From contig DASVBU010000021.1 of NCBI GenBank assembly GCA_036375695.1, positions 27,329 to 91,328 on the forward strand: a DNA stretch of 64,000 nucleotides, written 5' to 3'. The notes below the pieces were generated by a model, which saw nothing but the letters and a program-made list of their open reading frames with translations, was not told the origin of the DNA and did not search any database. Source of the stretch: Acidimicrobiia bacterium (GTDB lineage Bacteria; Actinomycetota; Acidimicrobiia; Spongiisociales; ZC4RG35). The translations under genes and the position numbers were made by a program. Shown here one piece after another: positions 10,166 to 41,941 of this stretch; position 1 is the stretch's first letter, and every line of letters starts with the position of its first letter.

Positions 10166-11290
10166 TCAGAGCCCGAGGACGTCCCCCAGGCGCTGGCGAT
10201 GGAACCGGGGGTCGCCGAGGAGAAGCGACGACGTCTTGGCCCGCTTCAGGTAGAGGTGGGCGTCGTGCTCCCAGGTGAACCCGATCCCGCCGTGGAGTTG
10301 GATGTTCTCCCCGGCCGCCCACACGTAAGCCTCCGAGGCCACCGACGCGGCGAGGGGGGCGGCGATGGCAAACTCCTGCTCGTCGTCCGTGACCCGGACG
10401 GCGTGATACGCCACCGACTTGGCATGCTCCACCTTGACCAGCATCCGGGCACATCGGTGCTTGACCGCCTGGAACGACCCGATGGGCCGGCCGAACTGGT
10501 GGCGGGTCTTGGCGTACTCGGTCGACATCTCGAGACAGCGCTGGGCCCCACCGACCTGCTCGTTGGCGAGCAGCGACGACGCCATCGCGAGAGCCTTCTT
10601 CAACCCGTCGGCGGCCGGTCCGCCGCCGAGCGGTCGTCCCGCGGCCACACCCTCGAAGGCGACGTTGCCCTGGCGTCGGGTCGGGTCGAGGACGTCCACC
10701 TGCTCGACGCCGACCCCGGTCTCGCCGGCGCGGACCGGGAAGACGGCGACACCGTCGTCGGTGCGGGCCGCGACCAGGAACAGGTCGGCGAGATGACCGT
10801 CGAGGACGTGCTTCTTGACGCCCGAGATCATCCAACGGTCACCGTCCCGGGTGGCGGTGGTCTCGATCGCCTCGAGCCCCCAGTCGCGGGATCCCTCGAA
10901 GACGGCCAGCGTGGCGATGGTCTCGCCCGATGCGATGCCGGGGAGGAGCTCCGCCTTCTGCTCGTCGTCGGCGAGCGTCATGATCACGGGGGTGGCCAGC
11001 CCCACTGTGGCGAAGAAGGGGCCCGGGGTGACCATCCGGCCCATCTCCTCGAAGATCACCGACAGCTCCACGGGGCCGTAGCCGGCGCCGCCGTGCTCTT
11101 CGGGGATGGCGAGACCCGTCCAGCCGAGGTCTGCCATCTCCTTCCACAGCGAGCGATCGAACCCCTCGGGGGTCATCATCAGCTCCCGCACCGTCGGGAT
11201 CGGGAGCCGGTCGTCGAGGAACTCCCGCGCCGTGTTGCGGAGCAGCGTCACCTCCTCGGTCGGCGCATAGGAGACACGGGCCTCAGCCAC
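10166..11290 (-). CDS. acyl-CoA dehydrogenase family protein, probable non-catalytic partner subunit
   Basis: 374 aa ACAD fold (GGIGFTWEHDAHLY C-terminal helix); no recognisable C-terminal YEGT/IEGG catalytic-Glu motif; overlaps upstream ACAD gene by 8 nt. Confidence 0.75.
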   Translation of the reverse strand: MAEARVSYAPTEEVTLLRNTAREFLDDRLPIPTVRELMMTPEGFDRSLWKEMADLGWTGLAIPEEHGGAGYGPVELSVIFEEMGRMVTPGPFFATVGLATPVIMTLADDEQKAELLPGIASGETIATLAVFEGSRDWGLEAIETTATRDGDRWMISGVKKHVLDGHLADLFLVAARTDDGVAVFPVRAGETGVGVEQVDVLDPTRRQGNVAFEGVAAGRPLGGGPAADGLKKALAMASSLLANEQVGGAQRCLEMSTEYAKTRHQFGRPIGSFQAVKHRCARMLVKVEHAKSVAYHAVRVTDDEQEFAIAAPLAASVASEAYVWAAGENIQLHGGIGFTWEHDAHLYLKRAKTSSLLLGDPRFHRQRLGDVLGL

Positions 11291-12467: not shown

Positions 12468-12503
12468 ATGCCGCCAAGGTACAGCCGCCGGCCGAAGCTC
12501 GCG

Positions 12504-14637: not shown

Positions 14638-15057
14638 ATGGAGCAGCGCATCAGCCTCGTCACCCTCGGCGTCCGTGACCTGAACAGGGCCAGGGCGTTC
14701 TACGAAGCGATGGGATGGCAGCCGGCACAGGACCTGGGCGAGGTCCTCTTCTATCAGACGGGCGGCATGGTCCTCGCCCTGTGGGGTCGGGCCGACCTTG
14801 CCGAGGACAGCCGGGTCGAAGACTCGGGTGGATGGGGCGGTGTGGCGCTGGCCTACAACGTGCGCTCGCCGGAGGACGTCGACGCCACGATCGAAGAGGC
14901 CCGCCAAGCCGGCGCCGTGATCAGCAAGGAGCCCGGCCCAACGGAGTGGGGCGGCTACCAGGGCGTGTTCATCGACCCGGAAGGGCATCCCTGGGAGGTC
15001 GCCCACAACCCCTTCTGGCCGATCGACGACGACGGCAGCATCAGGCTCGCGGGTTAG
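14638..15057 (+). CDS. VOC-family protein (glyoxalase / bleomycin-resistance fold)
   Basis: 139 aa; N-terminus ISLVTLGVRDLNRARAFYEAMGW typical of VOC proteins. Confidence 0.75.
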   Translation: MEQRISLVTLGVRDLNRARAFYEAMGWQPAQDLGEVLFYQTGGMVLALWGRADLAEDSRVEDSGGWGGVALAYNVRSPEDVDATIEEARQAGAVISKEPGPTEWGGYQGVFIDPEGHPWEVAHNPFWPIDDDGSIRLAG

Positions 15058-15992
15058 AGGTCGAGATCCCAGTTCTGGCCGACGAGGTCGTGCCCGAAGC
15101 TGTGGTGGCGATCCTCCTCGACCAGCGTGAACCCGGCCGACTCGTAGATCCGCCGCGCCGAGACCAGCACGTCGTTGGTCCACAGCATCATCTTCCGGTA
15201 GCCCGCGGAGCGGGCGAAGGCGATGCACTCCTCGACGAGGCGACTGCCGATCCCCCGCCCCCGCGCCCAAGGCTCGACCAGGAGGGTCCGGAGCTGGGCC
15301 GTGTCCGCATCCCGCTCCACGCAGAAGACGCAGCCGGCGCGGGCCCCGTCGATCTCGGCGATCCAGGCGTTCTCCCGACCGGGCCGGAAGTTGGCCTGGA
15401 AGTCGGCCATGATCCTCGCCACCAGGCCCTCGAACTCCTCGTTCCACCCGTACTCCTGGGCGTAGATGGCGCCATGGCGTGAGACGACCCAGCCCAGGTC
15501 GCCAGGTTCGAGACCCCGTACCACCACGTCGCCGCCGGCGTCCTCGGGACGAAGGAGGTGGAGTATCACCCCCATCGCCTCGACGAGCGCCCTCCGCTGA
15601 TCGTCGGTCAACGGCCCGACCAGGTCGGTGACCTGGTCCACGGACCTCTCGTCGAGGACGGCGAACGCGTCCCGACCCTCCGGGGTCAGCTCCAGGACCA
15701 GGGCGCGCCCGTCGTCCGGCGAGGGCGCCGACTCGACCAGGCCCTTCTCCTCGAGACGGGTCAGGACCCGGGTGAGGAAGCTGGCATCGATGCCGAGACG
15801 GGCGCGCAGGTCGGACCGCTCCCAACGCTCCCGCTGGGCGAGCTCGAAGAGCACCCGCGCCTCGGTGAGGGAGTGCTCGGTTTGGAGGAGACCCGAGTCG
15901 AGCAGGCCGATGATCTCGGTCCATGCCCGGCTGAAGCGTCGGAAGCGATCCACGACCGTCATGGCCGGAAAGTAGTGGACGGAGTCCACCAA
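15054..15992 (-). CDS. MarR-family HTH fused to GNAT N-acetyltransferase
   Basis: N-terminal MarR winged helix (ARVLFELAQ...LTRLEEKGLV); C-terminal GNAT motif A (RGRGIGSRLVEECIAFARSAGYRKMMLWT); alternative ATG start at 15960-15962. Confidence 0.7.
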   Translation of the reverse strand: MVDSVHYFPAMTVVDRFRRFSRAWTEIIGLLDSGLLQTEHSLTEARVLFELAQRERWERSDLRARLGIDASFLTRVLTRLEEKGLVESAPSPDDGRALVLELTPEGRDAFAVLDERSVDQVTDLVGPLTDDQRRALVEAMGVILHLLRPEDAGGDVVVRGLEPGDLGWVVSRHGAIYAQEYGWNEEFEGLVARIMADFQANFRPGRENAWIAEIDGARAGCVFCVERDADTAQLRTLLVEPWARGRGIGSRLVEECIAFARSAGYRKMMLWTNDVLVSARRIYESAGFTLVEEDRHHSFGHDLVGQNWDLDL

Positions 15993-24680: not shown

Positions 24681-26669
24681 TTACCGGGCGAAGCCGAGCA
24701 GGTGGAGCTCGGAGGGGAGAAGTGCCTGCGGCCCGTCCGACAGCGCCTCCTCGGGACGGGGATGGATCTCCACCATGAGGCCATGGGCGCCGGCTGCGAG
24801 ACCCGCCCGGCCCAGGGGGATGACCAGGGGTCGCACCCCGGCTGCGTGCGACGGATCCACGATCACCGGGAGATGGGTCAACTGCCGCAGCACCGGCACC
24901 GCGGCCACGTCGAGGGTGCTCCTGGTGGCGGTCTCGAAGGTGCGAATGCCTCGCTCGCACAGGATCACCTGGCGGTTGCCCTCGGCCAGTATGTACTCCG
25001 CCGCCTGGAGGAACTCCTCGATGGTGGCGCTCATACCCCGCTTGAGCAGAACAGGTTTGCGCACCTTGCCCACGGCCGACAGGAGGGCGAAGTTCTGCAT
25101 GTTGCGGGTCCCGATCTGGAGGACGTCGGCGACCTCCGCCATCGGCGCCACGTGCTCGGGCGCGAGGACCTCGGTGACGACGGGGAGCCCGTGGGCCCTT
25201 CCCGCCTCGGCGAGCAACTCCAGAGCCTCGAAGCCGAGCCCCTGGAAGCTGTAGGGCGAAGTCCTGGGCTTGAAACAGCCACCCCTCAGCACGCTTCCTC
25301 CCGCCTCCCGCGTCGCCCGGGCGCACTCCATGACCTGCGCCCGGTTCTCCACGGCACAGGGGCCGGCGATGAGGACCGGGTCGGCATCGCCGCCGATTCG
25401 GACGCCCGCCACCTCGACAACGGTGTCCCCCGTACCAGCCCGGCGCGCCAGCTTGGGGACGCCGACGTCGCGGATCGTCGTCGCCGGCGACTCCTCGGGC
25501 ACGACTCCGGTGGCCGGAGGCGCCAGGGGTCGCCGCCTGTGAGGCCGGAGGTCGGAGGACGGGTACGACCCGAGCACGCGCATGAACCGCGCCTTCCGTC
25601 CGACGCCCTCGAGCGCCCGGACCACTGCCTCGTCGGACACGTTGCCCTCGAAGTCGAGGATGAACGTCTCCTCCCAGGGGTCGTCGGGGTTGGGCCGTGA
25701 CTCCAGCTTGACCAGTGGGATGCCCTCACGGGCGAATTCCGCCAGGACCTCCATGAGGGAGCCGGGCTCGTTCCCCACCGAGAGGACGATCGTGGTCTTG
25801 ACGGGGACACCGGGTGTGACATCGATCCGCGCCCTGGAGACCGCCAGGAACCGGGTGAAGTTGTCCGGCCGGTCGGTGATCGACGGGTGCAGGACGTGGA
25901 GACCCCTGGACAACGCGGCCTCCTCCGCGGCCACGGCCGCCACGGACGGGTCGCCGAGCAGGCGGACCTCCTCGGCGGCGCCCGCCGTGTCCCAGCTGTA
26001 GACCACCTCGGCTCCGAGACCGCGCAGGAAGTCGGAGCACTGTGCAACGGCCTGCGGGTGTGCCAGGACGCGGGCGATGCCATCCAGGCTGGCGCCCGGG
26101 AGACCGATGAGCCGATGGGCCACCGGCAACCTGACCTCCCCGGTCACCGCCAGATCGTTGGCGATGAGCAGGTCGTAGACCTCGACGATGCTCCCCGACG
26201 TCGAGTTCTCCACCGGGAGGACCGCCGCGTCCGCCCGCCCCTTCCCCACCTCGGCGACGGCGTCGGCGAAGGTGGTGGTGCCCGCGAACTCGACCCCTTC
26301 GTCACCGAAGAGTCGCCGGGCGGCGACGTGACTGAAGGCACCCGGAGCCCCCTGGAAGGTCACTCGTCTCACCCTCCCGGCGAGTCGCCGCTCACCCACC
26401 AGGTCGAGCTGGACCCGGAGGGAGTCGTCGAGGATCTGCTCCCAGAGACGCACCACCACCCCTGCGTCGAGCCCGTATTCCCGCGCCACCGCCACCCGCT
26501 CGGCGAGGAGACGCTCCTCGCGCTCGGCGTCGTGGAAAGCAAGACCGTTTTGGACCTTCTCTGCGGCGATGTCGGTCACCAGACGGCGACGCTCGGCGAG
26601 CAGCTCGAGGATGCGACGGTCCACGTCGTCGATCCCGGCTCGGTGTGAATCCAATGGTGAAGGGGTCAT
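24681..26669 (-). CDS. tri-domain fusion: chorismate mutase + prephenate dehydratase (with ACT) + DAHP synthase type I-beta
   Basis: N-terminal CM_2 ([25 protein letters not shown]); PDT motifs ([11 protein letters not shown]...ENSTSGSI...); ACT ([32 protein letters not shown]); C-terminal DAHPS I-beta (IAGPCAVEN...[14 protein letters not shown]); GGGAG SD 7 nt upstream. Confidence 0.8.
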
Positions 26670-26870: not shown

Positions 26871-27890
26871 TTGACGGGAACGGCTCTCATCTCCGGAACC
26901 GGCCTGATCGGCACATCGATCGGGCTCGGGCTGCGCTCCGCGGGCTGGCAGGTCGTCGGCTGGGACCCAGATCCCGCCACTACCGCGGAGGCGCGGCGTC
27001 GCGGCGCGCTCGACCGGGTCACGGATCACCCGGAGGATCACTCGGGCATCGATCTCGTCGTCCTCGCCGGCCCTCTACCAGCGATCGTGGCCACGCTGAG
27101 GAGCCTGCGAAGCGGCGCTCTGATCACCGACGTCGCCGGTGTCAAGACCCCCGTCGTGGAGGCCGCCGCCAACCTCCCCCGGTTCGTCGGTGGTCATCCC
27201 ATGGCGGGCGGAGCCACCCGCGGCCCGGACCTCGCCTCTGCCCACCTCTTCCACGGAGCTGCCTGGGTGCTGACCACGGACGGAGCCTCGGAGGGTGACC
27301 TGGAGACCATCGAGGAGGTGGTCCGGACGCTGGGCGCAAACCCGCTGCGGATGACCGCCGACGAGCACGACTCGGCCGTCGCCCGGGTCAGCCATCTCCC
27401 CCATCTCCTCGCCGGGGCGCTGGTCAGGATCGCGGCGAGGCGGGAGGCGATGGGTCTGGCCGGAGGTGGCTTCCGCGACCTGACCCGCGTCGCCGCGTCC
27501 GACACGTCGTGGTGGCCGGACGTCCTCCAGGCAAACGCCACCGAGGTGGCTGACGCCATCTCGGAGCTGCAGGCGGACCTGGAGGGGGCCCGGGCACGGC
27601 TCCTCGCCGGCGACAAGGTCGCCATCACCGGGTCGCTCGAGGAGGCGCGGGCCATCCGATCCTCGCTCGGCGAGCACCATGCCCAGATCCGGGTCATCCT
27701 CATCGATCGTCCGGGAGAGTTGGCGCGGGTGGGACATGCCCTGGAGGCGAGCCACGCGGACGTGCGGGACATCCAGCTCCGTCATGGGGAGCACGGGGGT
27801 GGCGGCGTCCTCACCATCTCGGTCACGCCGCGGTCGGCCCGGGCACTGCGTGAGGCGCTGGAGGCCGAGGGCTTCACCCTCGAAGTCTGA
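26871..27890 (+). CDS. tyrA: prephenate/arogenate dehydrogenase (TyrA) with C-terminal ACT domain
   Basis: Rossmann N-terminus ISGTGLIGTSIGLGL; PDH catalytic region GGHPMAGG; TTG start per track; divergent from the leader/CM-PDT-DAHPS unit. Confidence 0.8.
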   Translation: MTGTALISGTGLIGTSIGLGLRSAGWQVVGWDPDPATTAEARRRGALDRVTDHPEDHSGIDLVVLAGPLPAIVATLRSLRSGALITDVAGVKTPVVEAAANLPRFVGGHPMAGGATRGPDLASAHLFHGAAWVLTTDGASEGDLETIEEVVRTLGANPLRMTADEHDSAVARVSHLPHLLAGALVRIAARREAMGLAGGGFRDLTRVAASDTSWWPDVLQANATEVADAISELQADLEGARARLLAGDKVAITGSLEEARAIRSSLGEHHAQIRVILIDRPGELARVGHALEASHADVRDIQLRHGEHGGGGVLTISVTPRSARALREALEAEGFTLEV

Positions 27891-27913: not shown

Positions 27914-28216
27914 ATGCAGCCGTGGATCAGGGATGCCGATGGGGGCGCCGAGTTGCTGATCCACGTCCAGCCGGGGGCCCGAAGATCCGGTGTCGCCGGG
28001 ACCCATGGGGACGCGCTGAAGATCGCGGTACGGGAGAAGGCCACGGGCGGTGCGGCCAACCGCGCCGTCTGCGAACTCGTCGCCGACCTGCTCGAGGTCC
28101 CTCGTTCCACCGTGGAGCTGGTGTCCGGGCACCGCAGTCGTCGCAAACGCCTCCGTGTCGGCGGGGTGGATGCGACCAGCGTCGAGGCCGCGATCTCGGG
28201 CCTCGTGGCCGATTGA
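27914..28216 (+). CDS. DUF167 (YggU/UPF0235) family protein
   Basis: 100 aa; LLIHVQPGARRSGVAGTHGDALKIAVREKATGGAANRAVCELVADLL is characteristic of DUF167. Confidence 0.7.
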   Translation: MQPWIRDADGGAELLIHVQPGARRSGVAGTHGDALKIAVREKATGGAANRAVCELVADLLEVPRSTVELVSGHRSRRKRLRVGGVDATSVEAAISGLVAD

Positions 28217-28324: not shown

Positions 28325-29710
28325 ATGAGTCGCAATTTCAGATCGCGACACCTGCTGATCCTGACGGTGGTCCTCGCCTTCATCGTTGCCGCATGTGGCA
28401 ATGGTGGCGAGGGGACGACGACCACCACCGGAGGTGGGGACACGACCACCACCGAAGGTGGGATGACGACCACCACGGAAGGCGGCGGGGGTCCCGAAGA
28501 CGACCCGCTCGGTGTCTGGGAGATCGCCCCTGGCGAGGCCATCCAGATCCGGGCGCTCCAGTCCCAGACCGGTGACGCCGGGCCCCTGGGCATCGACCAG
28601 ATCCGGGGCGTCCAGCTCGCCATCGCCGACTTCGGTCCGGTGGCCGGCGAGTGGGAAGTCGACCTCGGCACACCCGAGGACGACCTGTGCAACGCCGAAG
28701 GCGGCCAGGCCGGCGCCCAGGCCATCGTGGCCCAGGAGAACGTGATCGCCGTGATCGGCACCACCTGCTCCGGAGCCGCGTACGCCGCGGCCCCGGTCAT
28801 CACGGGTGCCAACATGGTGATGTTCTCGGGCTCGAACACGGCTCCGAACCTGACCTCTGACCTGCAGGGCAATGCGGGCGAGCAGCACTTCGAGGGCTAC
28901 TACCGCACGGCCCACAACGACCTGTTCCAGGGCGCCGCGGTGGCCAGCTTCGTGTTCAACGACCTGGGTCTGACCCGTGCGGTCGCCATCCATGACGGCG
29001 ACCCCTACACGGAGGGTCTCGTCGACGCCTTCATCGCGGCGTTCGAGACTCTCGGCGGCGAAGTCCCGCTGAAGACGGCCACGACCGGCCAGCAGGGCCA
29101 GGATCAGACGGCGCTCCTCTCCGAGGTCGCCGCTGCCGAGCCCGAGGTCGTGTTCTTCCCGATCTTCCCGCAGACGGGTGGCCCGGAGATCATCCAGCAG
29201 AAGGACGGCGTCGCCGGCCTCGAGGACGTGATCTGGATCGGTGCTGACGGCCTGTTCGTCAACAGCTTCATCACCATCCCGCAGTCCGTGGGCATGTACT
29301 TCTCCGGTCCGGACCTCGACTTCGGTGGCAACACCAGCGCCACTGGTAAGACCTACCAGGAGATGGTGGATGCCTATGTCGCCGAGTTCGGTGAGGAGCC
29401 CACTGCTCCGTTCCACGCCCACACCTACGACGCCACCGTGCTGGTGCTCACCGCCATCCAGGAGGTGGGTGTCGTCGGTGACGACGGCGTGCTGCGGATC
29501 GGCAAGCAGGCCCTGCGCGACTACCTGAACAACGTCTCGGACTTCGACGGTCTGATCGGCAAGATCACCTGCGACGAGTTCGGTGACTGCGGTAGCCAGC
29601 GGGTCCAGGTCGCCCACCACGACGACGCCGCCGTGGACAACATCGCCGACGTGGAGGTCGTCGCTCAGTACGCACGTGCTGACCTGATCGATCTCATCAC
29701 CGGCGGCTGA
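28325..29710 (+). CDS. ABC transporter substrate-binding lipoprotein, Leu/Ile/Val-binding (Peripla_BP_6) family, system 1
   Basis: Start re-set to ATG at 28325 (MSRNFRSRHLLILTVVLAFIVAACG lipobox, AGGAAAAGGAAG SD). Thr/Gly-rich tandem linker TTTTTGGGDTTTTEGGMTTTTEGGGG. LivK-like fold. Confidence 0.8.
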   Translation: MSRNFRSRHLLILTVVLAFIVAACGNGGEGTTTTTGGGDTTTTEGGMTTTTEGGGGPEDDPLGVWEIAPGEAIQIRALQSQTGDAGPLGIDQIRGVQLAIADFGPVAGEWEVDLGTPEDDLCNAEGGQAGAQAIVAQENVIAVIGTTCSGAAYAAAPVITGANMVMFSGSNTAPNLTSDLQGNAGEQHFEGYYRTAHNDLFQGAAVASFVFNDLGLTRAVAIHDGDPYTEGLVDAFIAAFETLGGEVPLKTATTGQQGQDQTALLSEVAAAEPEVVFFPIFPQTGGPEIIQQKDGVAGLEDVIWIGADGLFVNSFITIPQSVGMYFSGPDLDFGGNTSATGKTYQEMVDAYVAEFGEEPTAPFHAHTYDATVLVLTAIQEVGVVGDDGVLRIGKQALRDYLNNVSDFDGLIGKITCDEFGDCGSQRVQVAHHDDAAVDNIADVEVVAQYARADLIDLITGG

Positions 29711-29732
29711 TCCCGACGGATCCAACGATCTG

Positions 29733-29766
29733 AAAGGGGCCCGGCTCGAGCCGGGCCCCTTTCTCA
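29733..29766 (+). terminator. intrinsic terminator-like perfect hairpin after the SBP gene
   Basis: AAAGGGGCCCGGCTCGAGCCGGGCCCCTTTCT: 12-bp GC stem flanked by an A-tract and a T-tract. Confidence 0.6.
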
Positions 29767-29874
29767 CGCCCCGAAACCGGTTCACCCGTTGGGCGAATCC
29801 CTCGATCCGATACGACATGGGCGAAGTCAGTCCGCTATCGTGCCGCAACCTCCAAGGCGCGGACTGGAGTTCAC

Positions 29875-31164
29875 TTGGCTACCGAGAGCATCAGAGTGGA
29901 ACAAAGACGTGTGTCGGCGGACACACCGACCGTCGCCGTCGACGTCTTCATCAACGCCCTCAAGGTGTTCCTCGGCTTCTTCGCCCTCTGGGCCCTCGTG
30001 GGCGCCATCAGCCTCCAGATAGAGGGAAGACTCATCTCGGGCGCCGCCTGGCGGGACGTCCTCACCGGTGGGTTCGTCCAGGGCGCCATGTACGGCCTGG
30101 TCGCCCTGGGATACTCGATGGTCTACGGCATCCTCGGGTTCATCAACTTCGCGCATGGCGAGGTCTTCATGACCGGGATGTTCGGCGCCATGTTCGTGGC
30201 CCACGGGTTGGCCGACAACGGGATGCTGGAGTCGAACTTCTTCCTGGCCATGCTCATCATGATCGTCGCCGCCATGATCGTCTCGTCGGTGGTGGCGGTG
30301 GTGATCGAGAGAGTGGCCTATCGCCCGCTGCGGGGCGCTCCCCGCCTCATCCCCCTGATCACCTCGATCGGCGTCTCGTTCTTCCTCCAGTACGCCGTCA
30401 GCGGTCTCTTCGGCGCGGGTGTGAAGCGCTTCCCCGAGCTCCCTGCAGCCATGCAGCAGCGCTACAACATCCTCGGGCTCCTGGTCAACGGGAGCCAGAT
30501 CCTCGTCGTCGTGGTCACCGCCATCTCGGTGGTCGGCCTCTGGTGGTTCGTCACCCGCTCCAAGACCGGGCGCGCCATCAGGGCGGTAGCCGAGGACAAG
30601 GAGATCGCAGGGCTCATGGGCATCGACGTCGACCGGACCGTGGTCATGACCTTCCTCGTCGGCGGCGCGATGGCGGGTGTGGCTGCGGCGATGTGGGCAT
30701 TCCTCTACAAGAACGTCTTCTTCTTGTCCGGCTTCCTCCCCGGGATCAAGGCGTTCACCGCCGCAGTCCTGGGCGGCATCGGCAACCTGCCAGGCGCCCT
30801 GCTCGGAGGCATGACACTCGGTCTCGTCGAAGCCGCCGGGCCCACCTTCATGACCGCCTGGCGCTGGGCGATCCCCGACGTCGTCGCCTATGTGCTCGGG
30901 GTGATCTCGCTGGCGCTCGCCGTCTTCGGCGCCTACCGGCTCCGTCGGCGAGTCATCGTGCAGACCAGCACCAACATCTCCCTGATCGTCCTCGGTGTCC
31001 TGTTCGCGGTATTGGCCTTCACGGTCATCCCCGGGTTCCAGGTCGTGATCCCCGGCGCATCCCAGCTCAAGGACATGATCGCCTTCATAGTGCTGATCGG
31101 CGTCCTCATGATCCGCCCGATCGGGCTCCTGGGCGAGAGGCTCGCCGTGGAGGAGAGGGGCTGA
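29875..31164 (+). CDS. branched-chain amino-acid-type ABC permease, LivH-like, system 1
   Basis: LVALGYSMVYGILGFINFAHGEVFM matches the LivH N-terminal motif; start uncertain (N-terminal extension in track ORF). Confidence 0.7.
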   Translation: MATESIRVEQRRVSADTPTVAVDVFINALKVFLGFFALWALVGAISLQIEGRLISGAAWRDVLTGGFVQGAMYGLVALGYSMVYGILGFINFAHGEVFMTGMFGAMFVAHGLADNGMLESNFFLAMLIMIVAAMIVSSVVAVVIERVAYRPLRGAPRLIPLITSIGVSFFLQYAVSGLFGAGVKRFPELPAAMQQRYNILGLLVNGSQILVVVVTAISVVGLWWFVTRSKTGRAIRAVAEDKEIAGLMGIDVDRTVVMTFLVGGAMAGVAAAMWAFLYKNVFFLSGFLPGIKAFTAAVLGGIGNLPGALLGGMTLGLVEAAGPTFMTAWRWAIPDVVAYVLGVISLALAVFGAYRLRRRVIVQTSTNISLIVLGVLFAVLAFTVIPGFQVVIPGASQLKDMIAFIVLIGVLMIRPIGLLGERLAVEERG

Positions 31165-31165
31165 G

Positions 31166-33123
<1,958 letters not shown>

Positions 33124-33124
<1 letters not shown>

Positions 33125-33912
33125 TGGCGGAGCACATGATGGAGACCCGAGCGCTGGCGAAGCGGTTCGGCGGTCTCAACGCGCTCGCCGGTGTCGACTT
33201 CCACATCGACCGCGGGGAGATCGTGAGCATCATCGGGCCCAATGGCGCCGGGAAGACGACCTTCTTCAATGCCGTCAGCGGCATGTACCCGCCGGACTCC
33301 GGTGACGCCCTGTTCAAGGGCCAGAGCATCGCCGGGCTGAGCCCCGACCAGATCACCAAGATCGGCATCGCCCGGACGTTCCAGAACGTGCGGCTCTTCC
33401 CCAACATGACGGTGCTGGAGAACGTGATGGTCGCCCGTCACTGCCGCACCCACAAGAGCGTCCTGCCCACCATCTTCCGGAGCCCGGGGTTCCTCGCCGA
33501 GGAGAAGGAGATCGAGGACCGGGCCAAGGAGATCCTGTCGTTCTTCGGCAAGAGGCTCCACGGCTACCGCTGGGAGCAGCCCGCCTATGTGCTCTCCTAC
33601 GCCAACCGCCGTCGTCTCGAGATCGCCCGGGCCATGGCGACCGACCCCGAGCTGCTCCTGCTCGACGAGCCGACCGCAGGCATGAACCCCCGGGAGAGCA
33701 TGGAGCTGCGCGAGCTGATCGGCCGGCTCCGGGACGAGTGGGGCTTCACCATCATCATCATCGAGCACGACATGCGGGTGGTCCGTGACGTCTCCGACCG
33801 GGTGGTGGTGCTCGACCACGGAGAGAAGCTCACGGAGGGCACGTACGATCAGGTCTCGACCAACCCGCAGGTGATCGAGGCCTACCTGGGCCGACAGGCG
33901 GATCAGGGCTGA
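33124..33912 (+). CDS. ABC ATP-binding protein LivG-like, system 1
   Basis: Start at ATG at 33124 overlapping the LivM stop (TGATG); Walker [10 protein letters not shown]; LivG-type C-terminal extension. Confidence 0.85.
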
Positions 33913-34643
33913 TGACCGAAGATCGCACCCCCCTCCTCGAATTCAAGGACGTGAACACCTACTACGGGCTGGTTCACATCCTCAAGGACGTCAACCTCAA
34001 GATCTACCCGGGCGAGATCGTCTGTCTCCTCGGCGGCAACGCCTCGGGGAAGAGCACCACGCTGAAGACGATCCTGGGCATGGTCATCCCCGCCTCGGGA
34101 ACCGTGTACATCGACGGCATGGACGTGACCAAATGGTCGACCAGCCAGCGTGTCGAGCACGGGATCTCGATGGTCCCGGAGAACCGTCGCCTGTTCAAGC
34201 GGATGACGGTGAGGGAGAACCTCGAGATCGGCGCCTACCTGCGCAAGGACAGGGAGAACCTTCAGGCCGAGATGGAGCGGATCTTCGAGCTGTTCCCCAG
34301 GGTCAAGGAGCGGCTCAACCAGAAGGCCGGGACCCTCTCCGGTGGCGAGCAGCAGATGGTGGCCGTGGGCCGTGCCCTCATGTCCAACCCCAAGCTCCTC
34401 CTCATGGACGAGCCGTCGATGGGTCTGGCCCCGATCCTGGTCGCCCAGAGCTTCGAGATCATCCAGCAGATCCACGAGGCCGGGACCTCGGTGTTCGTGG
34501 TGGAGCAGAACGCCAACATGGCGCTCTCCATCGCCGACCGGGGCTATGTGCTCCAGACCGGCCAGATCGTGCTCTCCGACACGGCCCAGGCGCTTCTGGA
34601 GAACCCGCAGATGCGCCAGGCCTACCTCGGCGAAGTCTCCTAG
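33912..34643 (+). CDS. ABC ATP-binding protein LivF-like, system 1
   Basis: Walker A GGNASGKST, LSGGEQQMVAVGRAL signature; ATGA overlap with LivG. Confidence 0.85.
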   Translation: MTEDRTPLLEFKDVNTYYGLVHILKDVNLKIYPGEIVCLLGGNASGKSTTLKTILGMVIPASGTVYIDGMDVTKWSTSQRVEHGISMVPENRRLFKRMTVRENLEIGAYLRKDRENLQAEMERIFELFPRVKERLNQKAGTLSGGEQQMVAVGRALMSNPKLLLMDEPSMGLAPILVAQSFEIIQQIHEAGTSVFVVEQNANMALSIADRGYVLQTGQIVLSDTAQALLENPQMRQAYLGEVS

Positions 34644-34756
34644 ACCAGCCCTCCGGGCGCCGAGAAGTACCTGTCCGATTACCCCTTCGACTATCGGGCA
34701 CGCGTAAGGTCACGCCGCTACCCTCGCCACGCCCCGGCAGGGGCGCTGGAGGAGGA

Positions 34757-35526
<770 letters not shown>

Positions 35527-35539
<13 letters not shown>

Positions 35540-36378
35540 GGGCACGACTTCTCGGCGAAGTCCTCCCCCGGGCGGAGGGACACGACGTCGTCCTCTCGGT
35601 CGAGGGCCTCCACCTCTCCTTCCACGCGGTGAAGGCCATCGAAGGTGTCGGCTTCACCGTCCACGACGGGGAGATCTTCGCCATCATCGGGCCCAACGGC
35701 GCCGGGAAGACCTCGGTGTTCAACTGCATCTCCGGCTTCTATCGCCCCGACTCGGGCACGATCGGCTTCGATGGTCGTGACCTCGTCGGCCTCAAGCCAC
35801 ACAGGATCGCCAACCTCGGCGTCGCCCGGACGTTCCAGAACATCGAGCTCTTCCCCCAGATGACCGTGCTCGACAACCTCATGCTGGGCCGGCACCGCCA
35901 CCTTCGCTACGGGTCGCTCGCCGCCATGCTCCGGGTGGGCAAGGCGATTCGGCAGGAGGTGCACAACCGAGAGGTCGTCGAAGCCATCGTCGAATTCCTC
36001 GAACTGGAGCCATATCGCAAGTCCTACGTGGCGATGCTCCCGTATGGTGTGCAGAAGAGGGTCGAGCTGGGCCGGGCCCTCGCCACGGAGCCTCGCATCC
36101 TGCTCCTCGACGAGCCGGCCGCCGGCATGAACCTCGAGGAGACCGAAGACATGGCGCGCTACATCACCGACATCCGGCGGGAGTTGGGGATTGGCGTGAT
36201 CCTCGTCGACCACGACATGCGTCTGGTGATGGACCTCGCCGACACGGTCCTCGCCCTCGAGTTCGGCCGGCACATCGCCACCGGCTCACCCGATGCCATC
36301 CAATCCAACCCAGACGTGATCCGCGCCTATCTGGGCGAGGGTCAGCAGTCCGCGACGATCCCGGGAGGTTCCGCATGA
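35527..36378 (+). CDS. ABC ATP-binding protein LivG-like, system 2
   Basis: Walker [10 protein letters not shown]; LivG-type; GTG start overlapping the previous stop. Confidence 0.85.
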
Positions 36379-38225
36379 CCACCACACTCGAGCCGAGAAC
36401 CCGTCTGCGCACACCGGCGGCGCGACTGGTCGAGCACGCCGAGCTCACGCCGAACAAGGTGGCCCTCAGGGAGAAGTACCACGGCGTCTGGAGAGAGATC
36501 ACCTGGGGTGAGTACTGGGACAACGTGGAGACGTTCGCCCACGCCCTCATGGCGTACGGGATCGAGAAGGGCGACCGGGTGGCCATCCAATCCGAGAACC
36601 GGCCCGAGTGGCTGTACACCGACCTGGGATCGATGTCCGCCGGCGCCATCTGCGTCGGTCTCTATCCCACCAACCCGACCGCCGAGATCGAGTACCTCCT
36701 CTCCAACTCCGGCTCCAAGGTCCACGTGGTCGAGGATCAGGAGCAGGCAGACAAGGTCCTGGCCATCCCGCCGGACAGGCTCCCGGAGCTGAAGCACATC
36801 ATCTACATCGAGCACCGGGGAGTGGACAACATCGACGACCCGCGGCTCATCTCCTGGGACGAATTCATGGCTGCCGGCCGGGAGCACCGTGAAGCCCATC
36901 CCGACGCGGTGGCCCGGAGCCTCGACGAGGCGGAGCCCGACGACGTCGTCTACCTCATCTACACATCCGGCACCACCGGGCCACCCAAGGGCGCCATGCT
37001 CACCATGGGCAACCTGGTCTACGCCACGGAGTTGATCACCGGCCATCGCGCGCTGATCCGCCCTCCGGCCGGCCCCAAGGACCTCCTCGTCTCCTATCTG
37101 CCGTTGTGCCACATCTACGAGAAGGTGTTCTCGGTGCTGATCGGCATCGGCGGCGGCGCCACGGTGCATTTCGGCGAGTCGCTGGACACGCTGATCACCG
37201 ACCTTCGCGAGGTCCAGCCCACGATCATGCAGGGCGTCCCGCGGATCTGGGAGCGGATCCACGCATCCTCGATGGTGCGGATGGCATCCGCCTCCCCGCT
37301 GAAGAGGCTCAACGCCGGGATCTGGCTGGCAGCCGCCCGCCACATCGGGGCCACCAAGGTGAAGCGGAACGGCCACCACACCGTGTCGACCAAGATCCTC
37401 GCCGCCCTCGGCGAGGTCTTCTTGTTCCGGGCGCTAAAGGACCGCGCGGGCCTGCGGCGTGTCCGCACGGCCATCTCCGGCGCCGCGCCGATCGCCCCCG
37501 AGATCCTCGAGTTCTACATGGGCATCGGGGTCCCGCTGTTCGAGGCCTACGGGATGACCGAGAACACCGCCATCGCCACTGCCAACCCGCCGGACGACGT
37601 CAAGGTGGGGACGGTCGGGCCGCCCTATGAGGGGACCGAGCTCGAGATCGACCCCGAGACCGGGGAGATCCTGGTCCGGCATGGCGCGGTGTTCGCCGGC
37701 TACTGGAACATGCCCGAGGCCACGGCGCGGACGCTCGATGCCGACGGCTGGCTCCACACCGGCGACGTCGGCGAGTGGGTGGACGGGACCCACGTCAAGA
37801 TCGTCGACCGGATCAAGGACATCATCATCACCAGTGGGGGCAAGAACATCTCCCCCTCGGAGCTCGAGAACTCCTTGAAGGCGTCGCCGTACATCAAGGA
37901 GGCGATCGTCATCGGGGACCGGCGCAAGTACCTGACGGCCCTCATCGGGATCGACTACGAGGTCGTCTCCGAGTGGGCGCAGCGTCGCAACATCCCCCAC
38001 ACCACCTACCGCGACCTCTCCGAGAAGCCGGAGGTGGTCGCCCTGGTGGACAAGGCGGTCAAGGAGGTGAACGAGAAGTTCGCCCGGGTCGAGCAGATCA
38101 AGGCGTTCCGGCTCATCACCAAGGAGCTCGACCACGAGGACGGCGAGCTCACCGCCACCCAGAAGGTGAAGCGAACCATCATCGAGTCCCGATTCGCCGA
38201 CCTAATCGAGTCGATGTACGAATGA
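36375..38225 (+). CDS. long-chain fatty-acid-CoA ligase (AMP-dependent synthetase/ligase), embedded in ABC system 2
   Basis: 616 aa; AMP-binding motif YTSGTTGPPKGAML; FACL-type linker and C-terminal domain; overlaps flanking genes by 4 nt on each side. Confidence 0.85.
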   Translation: MTTTLEPRTRLRTPAARLVEHAELTPNKVALREKYHGVWREITWGEYWDNVETFAHALMAYGIEKGDRVAIQSENRPEWLYTDLGSMSAGAICVGLYPTNPTAEIEYLLSNSGSKVHVVEDQEQADKVLAIPPDRLPELKHIIYIEHRGVDNIDDPRLISWDEFMAAGREHREAHPDAVARSLDEAEPDDVVYLIYTSGTTGPPKGAMLTMGNLVYATELITGHRALIRPPAGPKDLLVSYLPLCHIYEKVFSVLIGIGGGATVHFGESLDTLITDLREVQPTIMQGVPRIWERIHASSMVRMASASPLKRLNAGIWLAAARHIGATKVKRNGHHTVSTKILAALGEVFLFRALKDRAGLRRVRTAISGAAPIAPEILEFYMGIGVPLFEAYGMTENTAIATANPPDDVKVGTVGPPYEGTELEIDPETGEILVRHGAVFAGYWNMPEATARTLDADGWLHTGDVGEWVDGTHVKIVDRIKDIIITSGGKNISPSELENSLKASPYIKEAIVIGDRRKYLTALIGIDYEVVSEWAQRRNIPHTTYRDLSEKPEVVALVDKAVKEVNEKFARVEQIKAFRLITKELDHEDGELTATQKVKRTIIESRFADLIESMYE

Positions 38226-39115
38226 CCCAGTTCATCCAGGTGGTCCTGAACGGGGTGGCCCAGGCCGCCGTCTACGCCCTGGTGGCGGTGGGCTTCGTCA
38301 TCATCTTCAAGTCCACCCAGGTGCTCAACTTCGCCCAGCCGGCCTTGCTCCTCTTCGGTGCGCTGTGGGTGACGTACTTCGCCACCTCGGTGGGTCTCCC
38401 GTTCTGGCTGTCCGTGATCATCGCGGTCGTCCTCTCGGCCGCCACCGGCATCGCCGTGGAGCGCACGGCTCTTCGGCCCATGGTCGGGAAGCCGATCTTC
38501 GCCGTGGCGATCATGACGATCGGGCTGAACACGGTGCTCACGGTGCTCGCCCTTGCCGGCCTCGGCATCGACCTCCGACCCATCGGCGACCCCTGGGGGA
38601 TCAAGACCGTCCGGCTCGGCGGCTTCGCCCTCGCCCAGCACCAGGTGGCGGCGATCATCACGGCCGTCGTCCTGGTCTCGGCGCTGCTCGTCTTCTTCAA
38701 GTACTCCCGGATGGGGCTTGCGATGCGGGCGGCGGCATTCGACCAGGAGGTGGCCCTCACCCAAGGCGTCTCGGTCGCCTCTGTGTTCGCCCTGTCCTGG
38801 GCGCTGTCGGCGGTGCTCGCCATGTTCGGCGGTGTCTTCGTCGGCGCCGGGGTGGGCATCGACCGGAGCGCCCAGGTGGTTGCCCTCAAGGCCCTGCCGG
38901 TGGTCATCGTGGGAGGCCTCGACTCGATCGGGGGCGCTCTCGTCGGCGCGATCATCATCGGGATCACCGAGGCGCTCGCCCAGAACTACCAGCCCACCCT
39001 GGCACCCGGGCTGGGTCGGAACTTCTCCCAGGTCGTGCCGTACCTGGTGATGTTCATCGTGCTGCTGATCCGGCCGACGGGTCTGTTCGGCACCGAGGAG
39101 GTGGAGAGGGTATGA
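38222..39115 (+). CDS. branched-chain amino-acid-type ABC permease, LivH-like, system 2
   Basis: Start at ATG at 38222 (ATGA overlap with ligase stop); MTQFIQVVLNGVAQAAVYALVAVGFVIIF is LivH-like. Confidence 0.8.
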   Translation: MTQFIQVVLNGVAQAAVYALVAVGFVIIFKSTQVLNFAQPALLLFGALWVTYFATSVGLPFWLSVIIAVVLSAATGIAVERTALRPMVGKPIFAVAIMTIGLNTVLTVLALAGLGIDLRPIGDPWGIKTVRLGGFALAQHQVAAIITAVVLVSALLVFFKYSRMGLAMRAAAFDQEVALTQGVSVASVFALSWALSAVLAMFGGVFVGAGVGIDRSAQVVALKALPVVIVGGLDSIGGALVGAIIIGITEALAQNYQPTLAPGLGRNFSQVVPYLVMFIVLLIRPTGLFGTEEVERV

Positions 39116-40311
39116 GGCTGGGTCGGCCGGGGCTCATCTCCGACTACGCCACGGACACGGCCATCTTCCGGAGCAACGTCGCCCGTTTCTGGTTCACCGT
39201 GCTCCTCGTCGTCGTCGTGGTACTCGGTCTCGGAGGGGCCATCCCGCTCGGGTTCATGACCCTGTCCCTCGACGGGGAGGCGATGTTCCTCCTCGTCACC
39301 GCCCTGTTCGCTTCGGTGGCCGCCATCGGGCTCAACATCGTCACCGGTATCGCCGGCCAGGTCTCCCTGGGCCACGCCTTCTTCCTCGGTCTGGGCGCAT
39401 TCACCGCCGCCCTGCTCGGGGGTGTCGGGGAGACCCGCCAGGTCTTCGACCTCGAGACCGGACAGTTCGTACAGCAGACCCTGCTCTTGGGCTTCGAACT
39501 CGACATGCTCATCTGGCTGCCCGCAGCCGGCATCGTCGCCGCGCTCGCCGGCCTGATCGTGGCCCCGGTCGCCTTCCGGCTCCGGGGCCTCTACCTGGCA
39601 GTGGTCACGCTCGGTCTGGTGTTCCTCGGCGAGCACCTGTTCCGGGAGTGGGACGTGCTCACGGGCGGAGTGGGCATCGGCCGGCCGACTCCCTCGCTAT
39701 CCCTTCTCGGCTTTCGATTCGACCAACCCGGCGAGGTGCTGGGCTTCATGCTCGACCGGCAAGAGAAGCTGTTCGTGCTCGGCCTCATCCTGCTCCTCAT
39801 CTTCGGCCTGGCAGCCAAGAACCTGACCCGCTCCAAGATCGGCCGCGCCCTCTCGGCGATCAGGGACAGGGACATCGCGGCTTCGATGATGGGGATCGAC
39901 CTCTCCAGGTACAAGACCGTCGCCTTCGTCATCTCGTCGTTCTACGCGGGGGTCGCCGGTGCCCTGCTCTACACGGTGATCGGGCGCCTCCAACCCGAGT
40001 CGTTCAACCTCCTGCTCTCCGTGGAGTACATCGCCATGATCCTCATCGGTGGCGTCGCCACGGTCTCGGGCGCGATCATGGGGGCGGCGTTCATCACCTT
40101 CCTGCCCCTCGTGGTCAGGTGGCTGGCCGGGTTCCCGGTCTTCGGGTTCATCTCCACCGCACCGGGGGGCAACTTCCCCACGGTCGCCCACATCGAGGAG
40201 ATCCTGTTTGGCGTCCTCATCGTGGTGTTCCTCATATTCGAGCCTCTCGGTCTGTACGGAATCTGGATACGCATTCGCAACTACTGGAAGGCTTGGCCGT
40301 TCAGTTATTGA
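39112..40311 (+). CDS. branched-chain amino-acid-type ABC permease, LivM-like, system 2
   Basis: Start at ATG at 39112 (ATGA overlap); NIVTGIAGQVSLGHAFFLGLGAFTAALL is LivM-like. Confidence 0.8.
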   Translation: MRLGRPGLISDYATDTAIFRSNVARFWFTVLLVVVVVLGLGGAIPLGFMTLSLDGEAMFLLVTALFASVAAIGLNIVTGIAGQVSLGHAFFLGLGAFTAALLGGVGETRQVFDLETGQFVQQTLLLGFELDMLIWLPAAGIVAALAGLIVAPVAFRLRGLYLAVVTLGLVFLGEHLFREWDVLTGGVGIGRPTPSLSLLGFRFDQPGEVLGFMLDRQEKLFVLGLILLLIFGLAAKNLTRSKIGRALSAIRDRDIAASMMGIDLSRYKTVAFVISSFYAGVAGALLYTVIGRLQPESFNLLLSVEYIAMILIGGVATVSGAIMGAAFITFLPLVVRWLAGFPVFGFISTAPGGNFPTVAHIEEILFGVLIVVFLIFEPLGLYGIWIRIRNYWKAWPFSY

Positions 40312-40381
40312 GCAGAGAGATAAAGTTGGCGGACGGTCGGATAGGACCGCGTCCGTCATGGACAACTAGGAGGAGAAGGAC

Positions 40382-41791
40382 ATGAAGTCACGATGGCTAT
40401 TGAGCCTGGTGGCCTTGTCGCTCGTGATCGCCGCCTGCGGAGGGAATGGTGGTGCCACCACCACGACCGCCGCGCCCGAGGAGACGACCACGACGGGTGG
40501 TGGTGACACCACGACAACCACCACGGGCTCGGGTGAGATCGAGTACGACGTGGGTGTCACGCCCGCTCCATGTGAGGACGCGGTCAACGATGGGAACGGG
40601 TGTATCTACCTGGGGATCATCTCCGACCTCACGACCGGGCCGTTCGCCGCTCTCGGTGTCCCGCTGACCGCCGCCCAGCGCCATTTCTGGAACCAGGTCA
40701 ACGCCGACGGCGGGCTCGACGGATTCGACGTCATCATCCGTGACGACGACGTCATCGACGCCCACTACACCCCGGAGGACACCGCGGCCGGCTACGAGAC
40801 CATCCGCGGCCGGGTCCTGGCATTGGCCCAATCGCTGGGCACGCCACAGACCCAGAGCATCATCGACCGGATGGAGGAAGACAACGTCGTCGCCGCACCG
40901 GCCACGTGGTGGTCCGGATGGAACTTCCCCGAGGAGGAAAACGGCCTCATCCTCGAGTCGGGTGCCTCGTACTGCATCGAGGCCATGAACGGGATGTCGT
41001 TCATGTCGACGGTGATGCCGGAAGGGTTCACCTGGGCGCTCGTTCGCTTCCCGGGCGACTACGGCGGCGACTACGGCGCCGGCGCTCTCATCGCAGCCTC
41101 GATGCTCGGTCTGGGCGACCCGTTGTTCGACCTCCAGCTGGTCCCGATCTCGGCCGGTGGCGCCGTCACCGAGGCGGTGGGGCGGATCGTCGCCGAGAAG
41201 CCGGACCTGATCGTCCTCGTCTCGGGCCCGGTGGAGATGGCACAGATCGCGGCGGGCACCTTCCAGGGTGGCCACACCGAGTTCCAGATCCTGGGCGCCA
41301 GCCCGACCTGGAACGTGGCCCTGAAGGCCAACGCCGACCTGATGCCGCTCCTCGAGGGCGTGTACAAGGGCACAACGCCGTGGGGCGGTTGGACCACCGA
41401 CACCCCCGGTCATGCCGCCATGCGGGCCTCCGCGGAGGAGAACTGGTTCGACCCGAACTCAGAGCCGCCCCGCGGCCCGAACGGCGCCTACTCCGCCGGT
41501 TGGACCTGGCAGTACCCGATCAAGGCGCTCCTCGAGGCGGCCATCGCCTCCGGTGACCTGACTCGGGCCAACGTGGCCTCGATCGCGAAATCGCTGGACG
41601 GTGTGGACTACCAGGGCATCCTGCCCACCCGCAACTACTCCGGCACGGCCAACGACAACGCGGTGCGAACCACCTTCATCAACAAGGCGGACTCCGCCTC
41701 CGAAGACGGTCTGTCGCCGATCTCCGATGGCGCCTACACGGCGGACATCGTCGCCGACTTCGACTACCAGGGGCCCTGCTTCACGGGCTGA
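40382..41791 (+). CDS. ABC transporter substrate-binding lipoprotein (Peripla_BP_6-like), system 2
   Basis: Lipobox LVIAACG; Thr/Gly-rich linker GGATTTTAAPEETTTTGGGDTTTTTTGSG; AGGAGGAGAAGGAC SD. Confidence 0.8.
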   Translation: MKSRWLLSLVALSLVIAACGGNGGATTTTAAPEETTTTGGGDTTTTTTGSGEIEYDVGVTPAPCEDAVNDGNGCIYLGIISDLTTGPFAALGVPLTAAQRHFWNQVNADGGLDGFDVIIRDDDVIDAHYTPEDTAAGYETIRGRVLALAQSLGTPQTQSIIDRMEEDNVVAAPATWWSGWNFPEEENGLILESGASYCIEAMNGMSFMSTVMPEGFTWALVRFPGDYGGDYGAGALIAASMLGLGDPLFDLQLVPISAGGAVTEAVGRIVAEKPDLIVLVSGPVEMAQIAAGTFQGGHTEFQILGASPTWNVALKANADLMPLLEGVYKGTTPWGGWTTDTPGHAAMRASAEENWFDPNSEPPRGPNGAYSAGWTWQYPIKALLEAAIASGDLTRANVASIAKSLDGVDYQGILPTRNYSGTANDNAVRTTFINKADSASEDGLSPISDGAYTADIVADFDYQGPCFTG

Positions 41792-41801
41792 ACGAGGTGC
41801 G

Positions 41802-41845
41802 AAAAAAGGACGAAGGGCCGGTCATGCCGGCCCTTCGTCCTTTCG
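41802..41845 (+). terminator. intrinsic terminator-like hairpin after SBP gene 2
   Basis: AAAAAGGACGAAGGGCCGG-tcatg-CCGGCCCTTCGTCCTTTCGC: 15-bp stem with an A-tract before it. Confidence 0.6.
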
Positions 41846-41847
41846 CA

Positions 41848-41920
41848 GGATCAGTCCCCCACGACCGGAGGGAGTGGGGGAAGGCACCGCCGGCTAGCAA
41901 AGCGGAGCCGGGGGTAGAGC
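41848..41920. repeat. GC-rich hairpin repeat element, copy 4 (inverted orientation)
   Basis: GATCAGTCCCCCACGACCGGAGGGAGTGGGGGAAGGCACCGCC...GGAGCCGGGGGTAGAG is the reverse complement of the copy 1/2 consensus. Confidence 0.65.
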
Positions 41921-41941
41921 CACCAGGCGAAGGGATCGGAG

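Follow-up and report, generated by a model that had tools for sequence, protein, structure and literature searches.

A HAAT-type ABC importer with an embedded long-chain-type acyl-CoA synthetase in Acidimicrobiia: a widespread cassette predicted to couple acid uptake to CoA activation

Positions 28325-41791 of a 64,000-nucleotide (nt) stretch of Acidimicrobiia DNA (G+C ~68%), hereafter the window, hold two independent ABC importers of the HAAT family placed side by side. The second, system 2, encloses the gene of a long-chain-type acyl-CoA synthetase (ACSL, also called the ligase below), and comparison with homologous loci indicates that it is one copy of a widespread six-gene ACSL-linked HAAT cassette distributed across Actinomycetota, Alpha- and Betaproteobacteria. 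We consider it fairly likely that this system is an importer of a fatty-type acid, which the ligase would trap as acyl-CoA.

Results

Gene content of system 2 and assignment of the ligase

Analysis of reading frames and start codons places 11 genes in the region, all on the + strand, in the order SBP1-H1-M1-G1-F1 and then F2-G2-ACSL-H2-M2-SBP2, where SBP stands for substrate-binding protein, H and M for the LivH- and LivM-type permeases, and G and F for the LivG- and LivF-type ATPases. Pfam searches confirm every one of these assignments, and the gene order and common direction given in the first-pass annotation of this DNA are borne out. Identical products are called on Acidimicrobiia metagenome-assembled genomes for proteins of the region. 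Both systems have two BPD_transp_2 permeases, a LivG and a LivF ATPase and a Peripla_BP_6 SBP, which is the subunit set of the HAAT family (TC 3.A.1.4).

System 2 opens with F2 (34757..35539, 260 residues), which contains ABC_tran and has LivF as its best model, and with G2 (35536..36378, 280 residues from the GTG at 35536), which combines ABC_tran with BCA_ABC_TP_C; the same 280-residue gene is also called in L004. The ligase gene (36375..38225, 616 residues) follows, and behind it lie the permease genes H2 (38222..39115, 297 residues; BPD_transp_2, 104 bits) and M2 (39112..40311, 399 residues; BPD_transp_2, 113 bits). The last gene, SBP2 (40382..41791, 469 residues; Peripla_BP_6, 63.8 bits), encodes a lipoprotein-type SBP with a lipobox Cys after a hydrophobic N-terminus. 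The NCBIfam scan covered H2, G2, F2 and SBP2 as well as ACSL in this system. Against the Liv models, H2 scores 100.8 bits (cutoff 379), G2 278 (362) and F2 224 (441); SBP2 has no NCBIfam hit.

ACSL matches AMP-binding (PF00501) with 267 bits and AMP-binding_C_3 (PF23562) with 54 bits, and contains the motifs YTSGTTGPPKG (residues 196-206), YGMTE (392), HTGD (461), DRIKD (478) and TATQKVKR (593). The first of these is invariant in 12 ACSL homologues, and none of the ANL core motifs varies within the family. Residues 457-481 correspond to the fatty-acyl-CoA-synthetase (FACS) signature, DGWLHTGDVGEWVDGTHVKIVDRIK, a motif reportedly defined by Black et al. in 1997. The best NCBIfam model is FadD11 (NF038343), with 380 bits against a cutoff of 950, and ACSL is not an orthologue of that protein. 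No hydrophobic segment was found in ACSL, and the enzyme reads as soluble. These features assign ACSL to the long-chain synthetases of the ANL superfamily (ACSL/COG1022-type), with acyl-CoA formation as the predicted reaction.

Linkage of ligase and transporter across bacteria

In a sample of 15 loci chosen only by similarity to ACSL (at least 31% identity), homologues of G2, H2, M2 and F2 adjoin the ligase in 13. One of the other two loci is cut by the end of its contig, and the second is a Muribaculaceae contig without transporter homologues. The 13 linked loci span Acidimicrobiia, other Actinomycetota, Alphaproteobacteria and Betaproteobacteria/Usitatibacter, and the orders seen in the cassette include F-G-ACSL-H-M-SBP, ACSL-G-H-M-SBP-F, G-ACSL-H-M-SBP-F and G-F-ACSL-H-M. 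In Nonomuraea gerenzanensis the order is that of the window, F-G-ACSL-H-M-SBP, with 72/62/59/53/51/37% identity (59% for ACSL). The same order is found on a Sulfitobacter plasmid, amid acyl-CoA dehydrogenase, enoyl-CoA hydratase, AtuA-family and acyl-CoA carboxylase genes, and on an Agrobacterium Ti plasmid the order is G-H-M-SBP-F-ACSL, with genes for an acyl-CoA dehydrogenase and an SDR coming next.

For the converse test, loci were selected solely by a C-terminal tail motif of F2, described below. Among the matches listed, ACSL (at least 32% identity) is present in 18 of the 21 tail-selected loci with the full transporter in view. Because the linkage survives gene-order shuffling across phyla, it constitutes strong evidence that ligase and transporter share a function.

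The binding protein of system 2 is related to a fatty-acid-binding protein

The sole PDB sequence hit of SBP2 is 4N03 (E 1e-28), a fatty-acid-binding SBP of the Peripla_BP_6 fold from the actinobacterium Thermomonospora curvata, whose ligand we take to be palmitate. With the AlphaFold (AF2) model of SBP2 (pLDDT 88) as query, Foldseek also ranks 4N03 first, with an E-value of 3e-27 and a TMt of 0.87, the runner-up standing at 1.5e-18. 4N03 is likewise the best match of the cassette SBPs from Nonomuraea, Sulfitobacter and Agrobacterium, and of those from many metagenome loci.

A profile alignment with LivK, of low confidence, places Thr154, Ser178 and Tyr227 of SBP2 at the carboxylate-binding positions, all three being hydroxyl residues conserved in the family. 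In the same low-confidence alignment, Gly282 occupies the position of LivK Tyr202, and Ser307, in a variable column, that of LivK Glu226, a residue which is presumably the partner of the alpha-amino group in LivK.

A conserved C-terminal tail on the LivF-type ATPase

F2 is 17 residues longer than F1 and extends for about 20 residues past the YLG at which F1 essentially ends. This tail (residues 238-260, nt 35468-35536) reads LHGEEVASFANVKHYRRKKRWLS; the protein ends in VKHYRRKKRWLS, the finish of the tail being ...SFANVKHYRRKKRWLS. The consensus, (S/N)(F/Y)(R/K)x(V/I)KHY(K/R)RRKRWL(x)-COOH, is near-invariant, polybasic and aromatic. Each of the 10 cassette homologues examined, drawn from four bacterial classes, has it, and both F1 and canonical LivF lack it.

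Searching a metagenome collection with a degenerate nucleotide pattern that encodes KHY[RK]R[RK]KRWL yielded at least 80 loci. Among the 80 matches listed, the stop codon lies at most one residue after the motif in all 80, which puts the motif at the extreme C-terminus, and a LivF-like sequence ends at the motif in 77. Tail-bearing loci in our set are L010, L013, L016, L017, L019, L020, L086-L088, L090 and L092-L171. A full-text literature search, which left most subscription journals outside its cover, found no description of a LivF tail.

That so short a C-terminus is this well conserved implies that it makes a specific contact, whether to lipid head groups, the ligase or acyl-CoA. The tail might dock ACSL on the nucleotide-binding domains to form a metabolon, or it might act as a sensor of acyl-CoA or free fatty acid that gates the ATPase (product trans-inhibition); we put these roles forward as conjecture and regard them as unlikely. 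If either were true, the cassette would offer the first case of a binding-protein-dependent ABC importer that has its vectorial-acylation partner built in.

Predicted function of system 2 and alternative explanations

On the evidence of gene linkage, uptake by system 2 may be coupled to thioesterification. Outside the cell, SBP2, tethered to the membrane as a lipoprotein and related to 4N03, would bind an aliphatic carboxylic acid, for which a fatty acid of medium or long chain is the likeliest candidate. The H2/M2 permease would then carry the acid over the membrane, with the G2/F2 ATPases supplying the power, and the soluble ACSL would turn the arriving acid into acyl-CoA, so that the acid is trapped and the free acid kept low (vectorial acylation). 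The 4N03-like SBP2, the residues at the LivK positions and the FACS-bearing ligase together point to an aliphatic acid, and most simply to a medium- or long-chain fatty acid. This scheme builds on the gene content, the intact catalytic motifs of the ligase, its conserved linkage to the transporter genes and the structural relationship between SBP2 and 4N03. From these we infer the ligand class, import as the direction of transport, the action of the ligase on the transported molecule and any physical contact between ligase and transporter. The first-pass annotation had predicted uptake of an organic acid with trapping by CoA; for system 2 this prediction is supported by the linkage, the kinship with 4N03, the lack of an amino-group residue in the low-confidence LivK alignment and the ligase motifs.

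Several observations weigh against the proposed function. The identity of SBP2 to 4N03 is just 24%, and the alignment of SBP2 with LivK has an hhalign probability of 5.8%, though it follows the fold. Of the LivK residues used in reading that alignment, PMC6983066 confirms only Ser79, Thr102, Tyr150 and Tyr202 as contacts, with Glu226 outside that set. Three tail-selected loci (L119, L125 and L147) have a tailed transporter and no ligase in view, and in L162 the F2 homologue alone is in view. No beta-oxidation genes adjoin the cassette in the window or in the close relatives. Finally, the Atu-like genes of the Sulfitobacter locus hint at branched or terpenoid acids, and the precedent described in Ralstonia (see below) is a dicarboxylate.

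The Sulfitobacter context and the Ralstonia pimelate precedent keep branched acids and dicarboxylates in play. The alternative to which we give some weight, while judging it rather doubtful, is a system that does import and CoA-activate its substrate, with a pimelate-like dicarboxylate, an aromatic acid or else a branched or terpenoid acid in the place of a straight-chain fatty acid. In Ralstonia a Liv-type ABC transporter with an adjoining ligase is pimelate-specific. The Sulfitobacter cassette lies amid AtuA, acyl-CoA carboxylase and enoyl-CoA hydratase genes, and the COG0683 SBPs of Rhodopseudomonas palustris bind dicarboxylic and aromatic as well as fatty acids. The aromatic-acid SBPs 4EY3, 4EVQ and 4F8J are indeed among the fold hits of SBP2, but they fit it far worse than 4N03 does (E ~1e-14 and TMt ~0.75 versus 3e-27 and 0.87). 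The ligase, too, argues for a fatty acid, with its long-chain FACS signature and ACSL-type C-terminal domain, and it matches coumarate and malonyl ligases over a partial stretch only.

Two further explanations have very little to recommend them. Both systems could be ordinary importers of branched-chain or hydrophobic amino acids and the ligase an unrelated passenger gene, as the best NCBIfam models of the transporter subunits (Liv) and their public annotation as branched-chain amino acid transporters would have it. Every Liv NCBIfam score nevertheless falls below its curated cutoff and SBP2 lacks any hit, amino-acid binders are absent from the PDB sequence hits of SBP2, no acidic residue that would pair with an amino group is seen in SBP2 (in the low-confidence alignment), and the ligase remains linked to the transporter across phyla and changes of gene order; we find this explanation hard to credit. 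It is equally improbable that the ligase, instead of feeding catabolism, scavenges exogenous fatty acids for the synthesis or remodelling of membrane lipid, or that it acts as an acyl-AMP ligase feeding a carrier protein. Beta-oxidation genes do not flank the cassette in the window or in its relatives L089 and L090, and FadD11, which gives the best NCBIfam match, is an enzyme from mycobacteria whose role is unclear; both points would suit such a function; against it, the proteobacterial cassettes are embedded amid acyl-CoA dehydrogenase, hydratase and thiolase genes, the ligase has the A8 motif and C-terminal lysine motif typical of CoA-forming enzymes, and no carrier-protein or acyltransferase gene was found nearby.

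The neighbours of the cassette are glyoxalase, RibD_C and AlkZ genes in the window and MoaE and BioY genes in L090. A run of three acyl-CoA dehydrogenase genes, among them an AidB-like one, is located at 10166-14132 on the - strand, ~20 kb upstream of the cassette. Capacity for acyl-CoA oxidation is encoded in the stretch, but it is unlinked to system 2, and a local beta-oxidation context was ruled out on account of this distance and the opposite strand.

System 1 resembles amino-acid importers

SBP1 (28325..29710, + strand, 461 residues) is a lipoprotein-type SBP that matches Peripla_BP_6 (PF13458) with 104 bits and ANF_receptor with 79 bits, and it has the lipobox VAAC, whose Cys is followed by a Thr/Gly-rich linker. 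Its best PDB relatives are all amino-acid binders: 3TD9 (Thermotoga, LivK-like), 2LBP and 1USG (Escherichia coli LivK/LivJ), 4N0Q (Brucella) and 4GNR (pneumococcal LivJ). A HMMER alignment gives S, T, Y, I and D at the positions of LivK Ser79, Thr102, Tyr150, Tyr202 and Glu226, so that four of the five are kept; PMC6983066 describes the first four of these LivK positions as contacting the ligand in LivJ/K. Since SBP1 is most like true amino-acid binders, system 1 falls outside the organic-acid prediction.

Both permeases of system 1 are enlarged. H1 (29875..31164, 429 residues from TTG 29875, with GTG 29896 as an alternative start; BPD_transp_2 (PF02653), 140 bits) carries an additional hydrophobic insert ahead of the final helix, as judged from hydropathy, and H1 of L089 is also 429 residues long. 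In M1 (31166..33124, 652 residues), BPD_transp_2 (131 bits) covers residues 262-608, and residues 1-260 (31166-31945) form an extra N-terminal multi-helix membrane domain; such a domain had been noticed earlier, with an estimated length of 300 residues in place of the ~260 found here. Residues 398-454 are a DUF3185-like two-helix insert. The NCBI name of the identical M1 protein is 'DUF3185 family protein', a mis-annotation of a LivM-type permease.

When used alone as a query, the N-terminal domain of M1 found 312 clusters among 1.84 billion cluster representatives, always at the N-terminus of the match, and many of the matching proteins are LivM-like in length (550-900 residues). LivM proteins of 580-700 residues are the norm among Acidimicrobiia homologues, and the domain is a trait of the lineage, not a peculiarity of the window locus. 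The AlphaFold model of M1 has a pLDDT of 72, with values of ~80-90 in the N-domain, which contains six to seven helices. Foldseek found no match to this model in the PDB at E <= 0.001, even for the BPD_transp_2 (HAAT/CUT2-type) permease core, a result to which the modest pLDDT may contribute.

G1 (33124..33912; ABC_tran and BCA_ABC_TP_C, PF12399) and F1 (33912..34643; ABC_tran) complete the system on the + strand, F1 ending in ...AYLGEVS. The NCBIfam Liv scores are 68 bits for SBP1 (cutoff 477), 194 for H1 (379), 251 for M1 (366), 290.8 for G1 (362) and 290.5 for F1 (441). Since all of them fall short of the curated cutoffs, system 1 is not a LIV-I orthologue. Its sequence features indicate that it is probably an amino-acid-type importer, an assignment that concerns the specificity class only; its enlarged permeases are of a kind usual in Acidimicrobiia.

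The two systems are not recent duplicates

The arrangement of the two systems had been described as a mirror-image pair. SBP1 and SBP2 give no BLAST hit with each other, and identity between system 1 and system 2 is 25-28% for the permeases and 42-44% for the ATPases. In L089, a relative at 80% identity, the two systems adjoin as in the window. In the 68%-identity relative L090/L091, the six genes of system 2 occur alone, between moaE and bioY, and in the Acidimicrobiia contig L023 the 6 kb 5' of F2 is without system 1 genes. An origin of the mirror image by (inverted-order) duplication was ruled out by the dissimilarity of the SBPs, the permease identity and the lone system 2 in L090/L091. 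The mirror arrangement is a lineage-specific juxtaposition of two unrelated, old HAAT subfamilies, and not as the product of a recent duplication.

Gene junctions and candidate regulatory signals

ATGA overlaps are found at G2/ACSL, ACSL/H2 and H2/M2, a GTGA overlap at F2/G2 and 1-nt overlaps at M1/G1 and G1/F1, whereas gaps of 165, 113 and 70 nt separate SBP1 from H1, F1 from F2 and M2 from SBP2. The earlier description of overlapping stops and starts throughout is accurate for the former junctions and does not apply to the three gaps; that of an ATGA overlap on either side of the ligase is correct. The stoichiometric co-expression which the first-pass annotation derived from it is not supported. 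Stop codons that overlap the next start are a sign of probable translational coupling and do not prove a fixed stoichiometry, and the ACSL/H2 overlap is a 25-nt gap in L089.

In the SBP1-H1 gap, RNAfold of the intergenic region gives a GC-rich hairpin directly 3' of SBP1 (29732..29763, + strand; 14-bp stem, 4-nt loop), which separates SBP1 from the remainder of its operon. It is not called by the consensus terminator scan because it has no U tract. It could possibly act as a partial terminator or mRNA stabiliser that gives an excess of SBP (differential expression). Folding of 41792-41941 places a second strong GC hairpin directly 3' of SBP2, at 41798..41847 (+ strand), with a 3' stem arm ending in CCTTTCGC; this is likely the operon terminator. 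Both hairpins are long and perfect. Consensus terminator-like sites are not commoner in the region than in shuffled sequence, and no tRNA or regulatory RNA was found in it.

The 113-nt F1-F2 gap (34644..34756, + strand), examined by sequence and fold, ends in a strong ribosome-binding site, GGAGGAGGA, and presumably marks the start of a separate transcription unit for system 2, the upstream neighbours of which differ in L090/L091 and L023. No sigma-70-type promoter was found in the region, this gap included. Upstream of F2, L090 and L023 have ACTTGGTAGCCT in common. The window and L089 have in common only a loose AAG(G)TC...CTAC(C/G)CT. A conserved operator or promoter 5' of F2 is not claimed, as the upstream alignment across the window, L089, L090 and L023 is unconvincing.

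Other genes in the window

A small gene (27914-28216, + strand), DUF167/YggU-like by eye, lies directly 5' of SBP1, and at the matching position in L089 there is a gene recorded as PF02594 ('PF1765-like'). With this gene present in L089, the adjacency of the small gene to SBP1 is conserved, although the aromatic-biosynthesis genes are not. The latter include a single 662-residue open reading frame (ORF) at 24681-26669 (- strand) that joins CM_2, PDT, ACT and DAHP_synth_1, an unusual fusion uniting the first and the late steps of phenylalanine synthesis in one polypeptide, and a divergent prephenate dehydrogenase-ACT gene at 26871-27890; the block is absent from the equivalent position in L089. 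Elsewhere in the window, a 312-residue ORF (15054-15992, - strand) is a fusion of two domains, DNA-binding of the MarR type and GNAT acetyltransferase.

Discussion

For the window itself, the analysis mainly provides a correct and more specific annotation. Its relevance is greatest for Acidimicrobiia and other abundant uncultured heterotrophs, whose diet is inferred from transporter counts. Three features in combination, the ACSL within the operon, the 4N03-like SBP and the LivF tail, allow a large set of genes in soil, freshwater and marine metagenomes to be re-annotated automatically, and genes with all three most likely form a unit for the uptake and activation of fatty or organic acids. 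The cassette also offers a clean genetic system in which to ask whether an ABC importer and an acyl-CoA synthetase act as one machine, since its carriers Nonomuraea, Sulfitobacter and Agrobacterium are culturable. The full-text search, with most subscription journals outside its cover, found no literature on this exact cassette or on 4N03.

Import by a liv-type transporter tied to a CoA ligase is already known. Most of the COG0683 SBPs of R. palustris, although classed as 'branched-chain amino acid' proteins, have fatty, dicarboxylic or aromatic acids as ligands and are encoded beside CoA-ligase genes (PMC3223731), examples being CouPSTU with CouB, HbaEFGHI with the hba/bad ligases, and RPA3723-3725 beside pimA (PMC3223731, PMC3610893). 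These systems resemble the cassette in combining a Liv-like ABC transporter and SBPs for acids other than Leu/Ile/Val with an associated ligase that activates the imported acid. Their ligases, however, are short aromatic or medium-chain enzymes encoded in neighbouring operons, whereas the cassette has a 616-residue ACSL-type enzyme inside the transporter operon. Their SBPs are also distant from SBP2 (TMt ~0.75, 11-16% identity), and no LivF tail has been reported for these systems, in contrast to the tailed LivF of the cassette.

In Ralstonia sp. CL21, the five-gene Liv-type ABC transporter ABZR87_RS12600-12620 and the directly adjacent acyl-CoA ligase RS12625 share a pimelate-specific fitness defect, and a counterpart system in Cupriavidus basilensis (RR42_RS11130-11155) acts on pimelate plus adipate (PMC12543098). 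The shared substrate-specific defect of the Ralstonia transporter and ligase indicates that such pairs work together. The likeness of these systems to the cassette is one of gene layout; in them the ligase follows the SBP gene, and the substrate is pimelate.

Fatty-acid transport coupled to thioesterification is a feature of other vectorial acylation systems, such as FadL/FadD of E. coli and the eukaryotic FATP/ACSL proteins. The Mycobacterium tuberculosis mce1 operon encodes the synthetase FadD5 (bioRxiv 10.1101/2024.10.29.620959), which lies inside a transporter operon as in the cassette, and peroxisomal ABCD transporters cooperate with acyl-CoA synthetases (PMC4900756). The transporters of these systems are nevertheless unrelated to that of the cassette, comprising an outer-membrane barrel, Mce/YrbE proteins and a type IV ABC exporter fold, and none of them is a HAAT type I importer.

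Compared to LIV-I of E. coli (LivJ/K-HMGF, TC 3.A.1.4.1), both systems of the window have the same subunit set and domain families. M1 differs in its 652 residues, against ~425 in E. coli LivM, and system 2 in its non-LivJ-like SBP, its tailed LivF and the inserted ligase. Among the known liv-type systems tied to a CoA ligase, the cassette is set apart by the combination of an ACSL-type in-operon ligase, a 4N03-type SBP and a tailed LivF.

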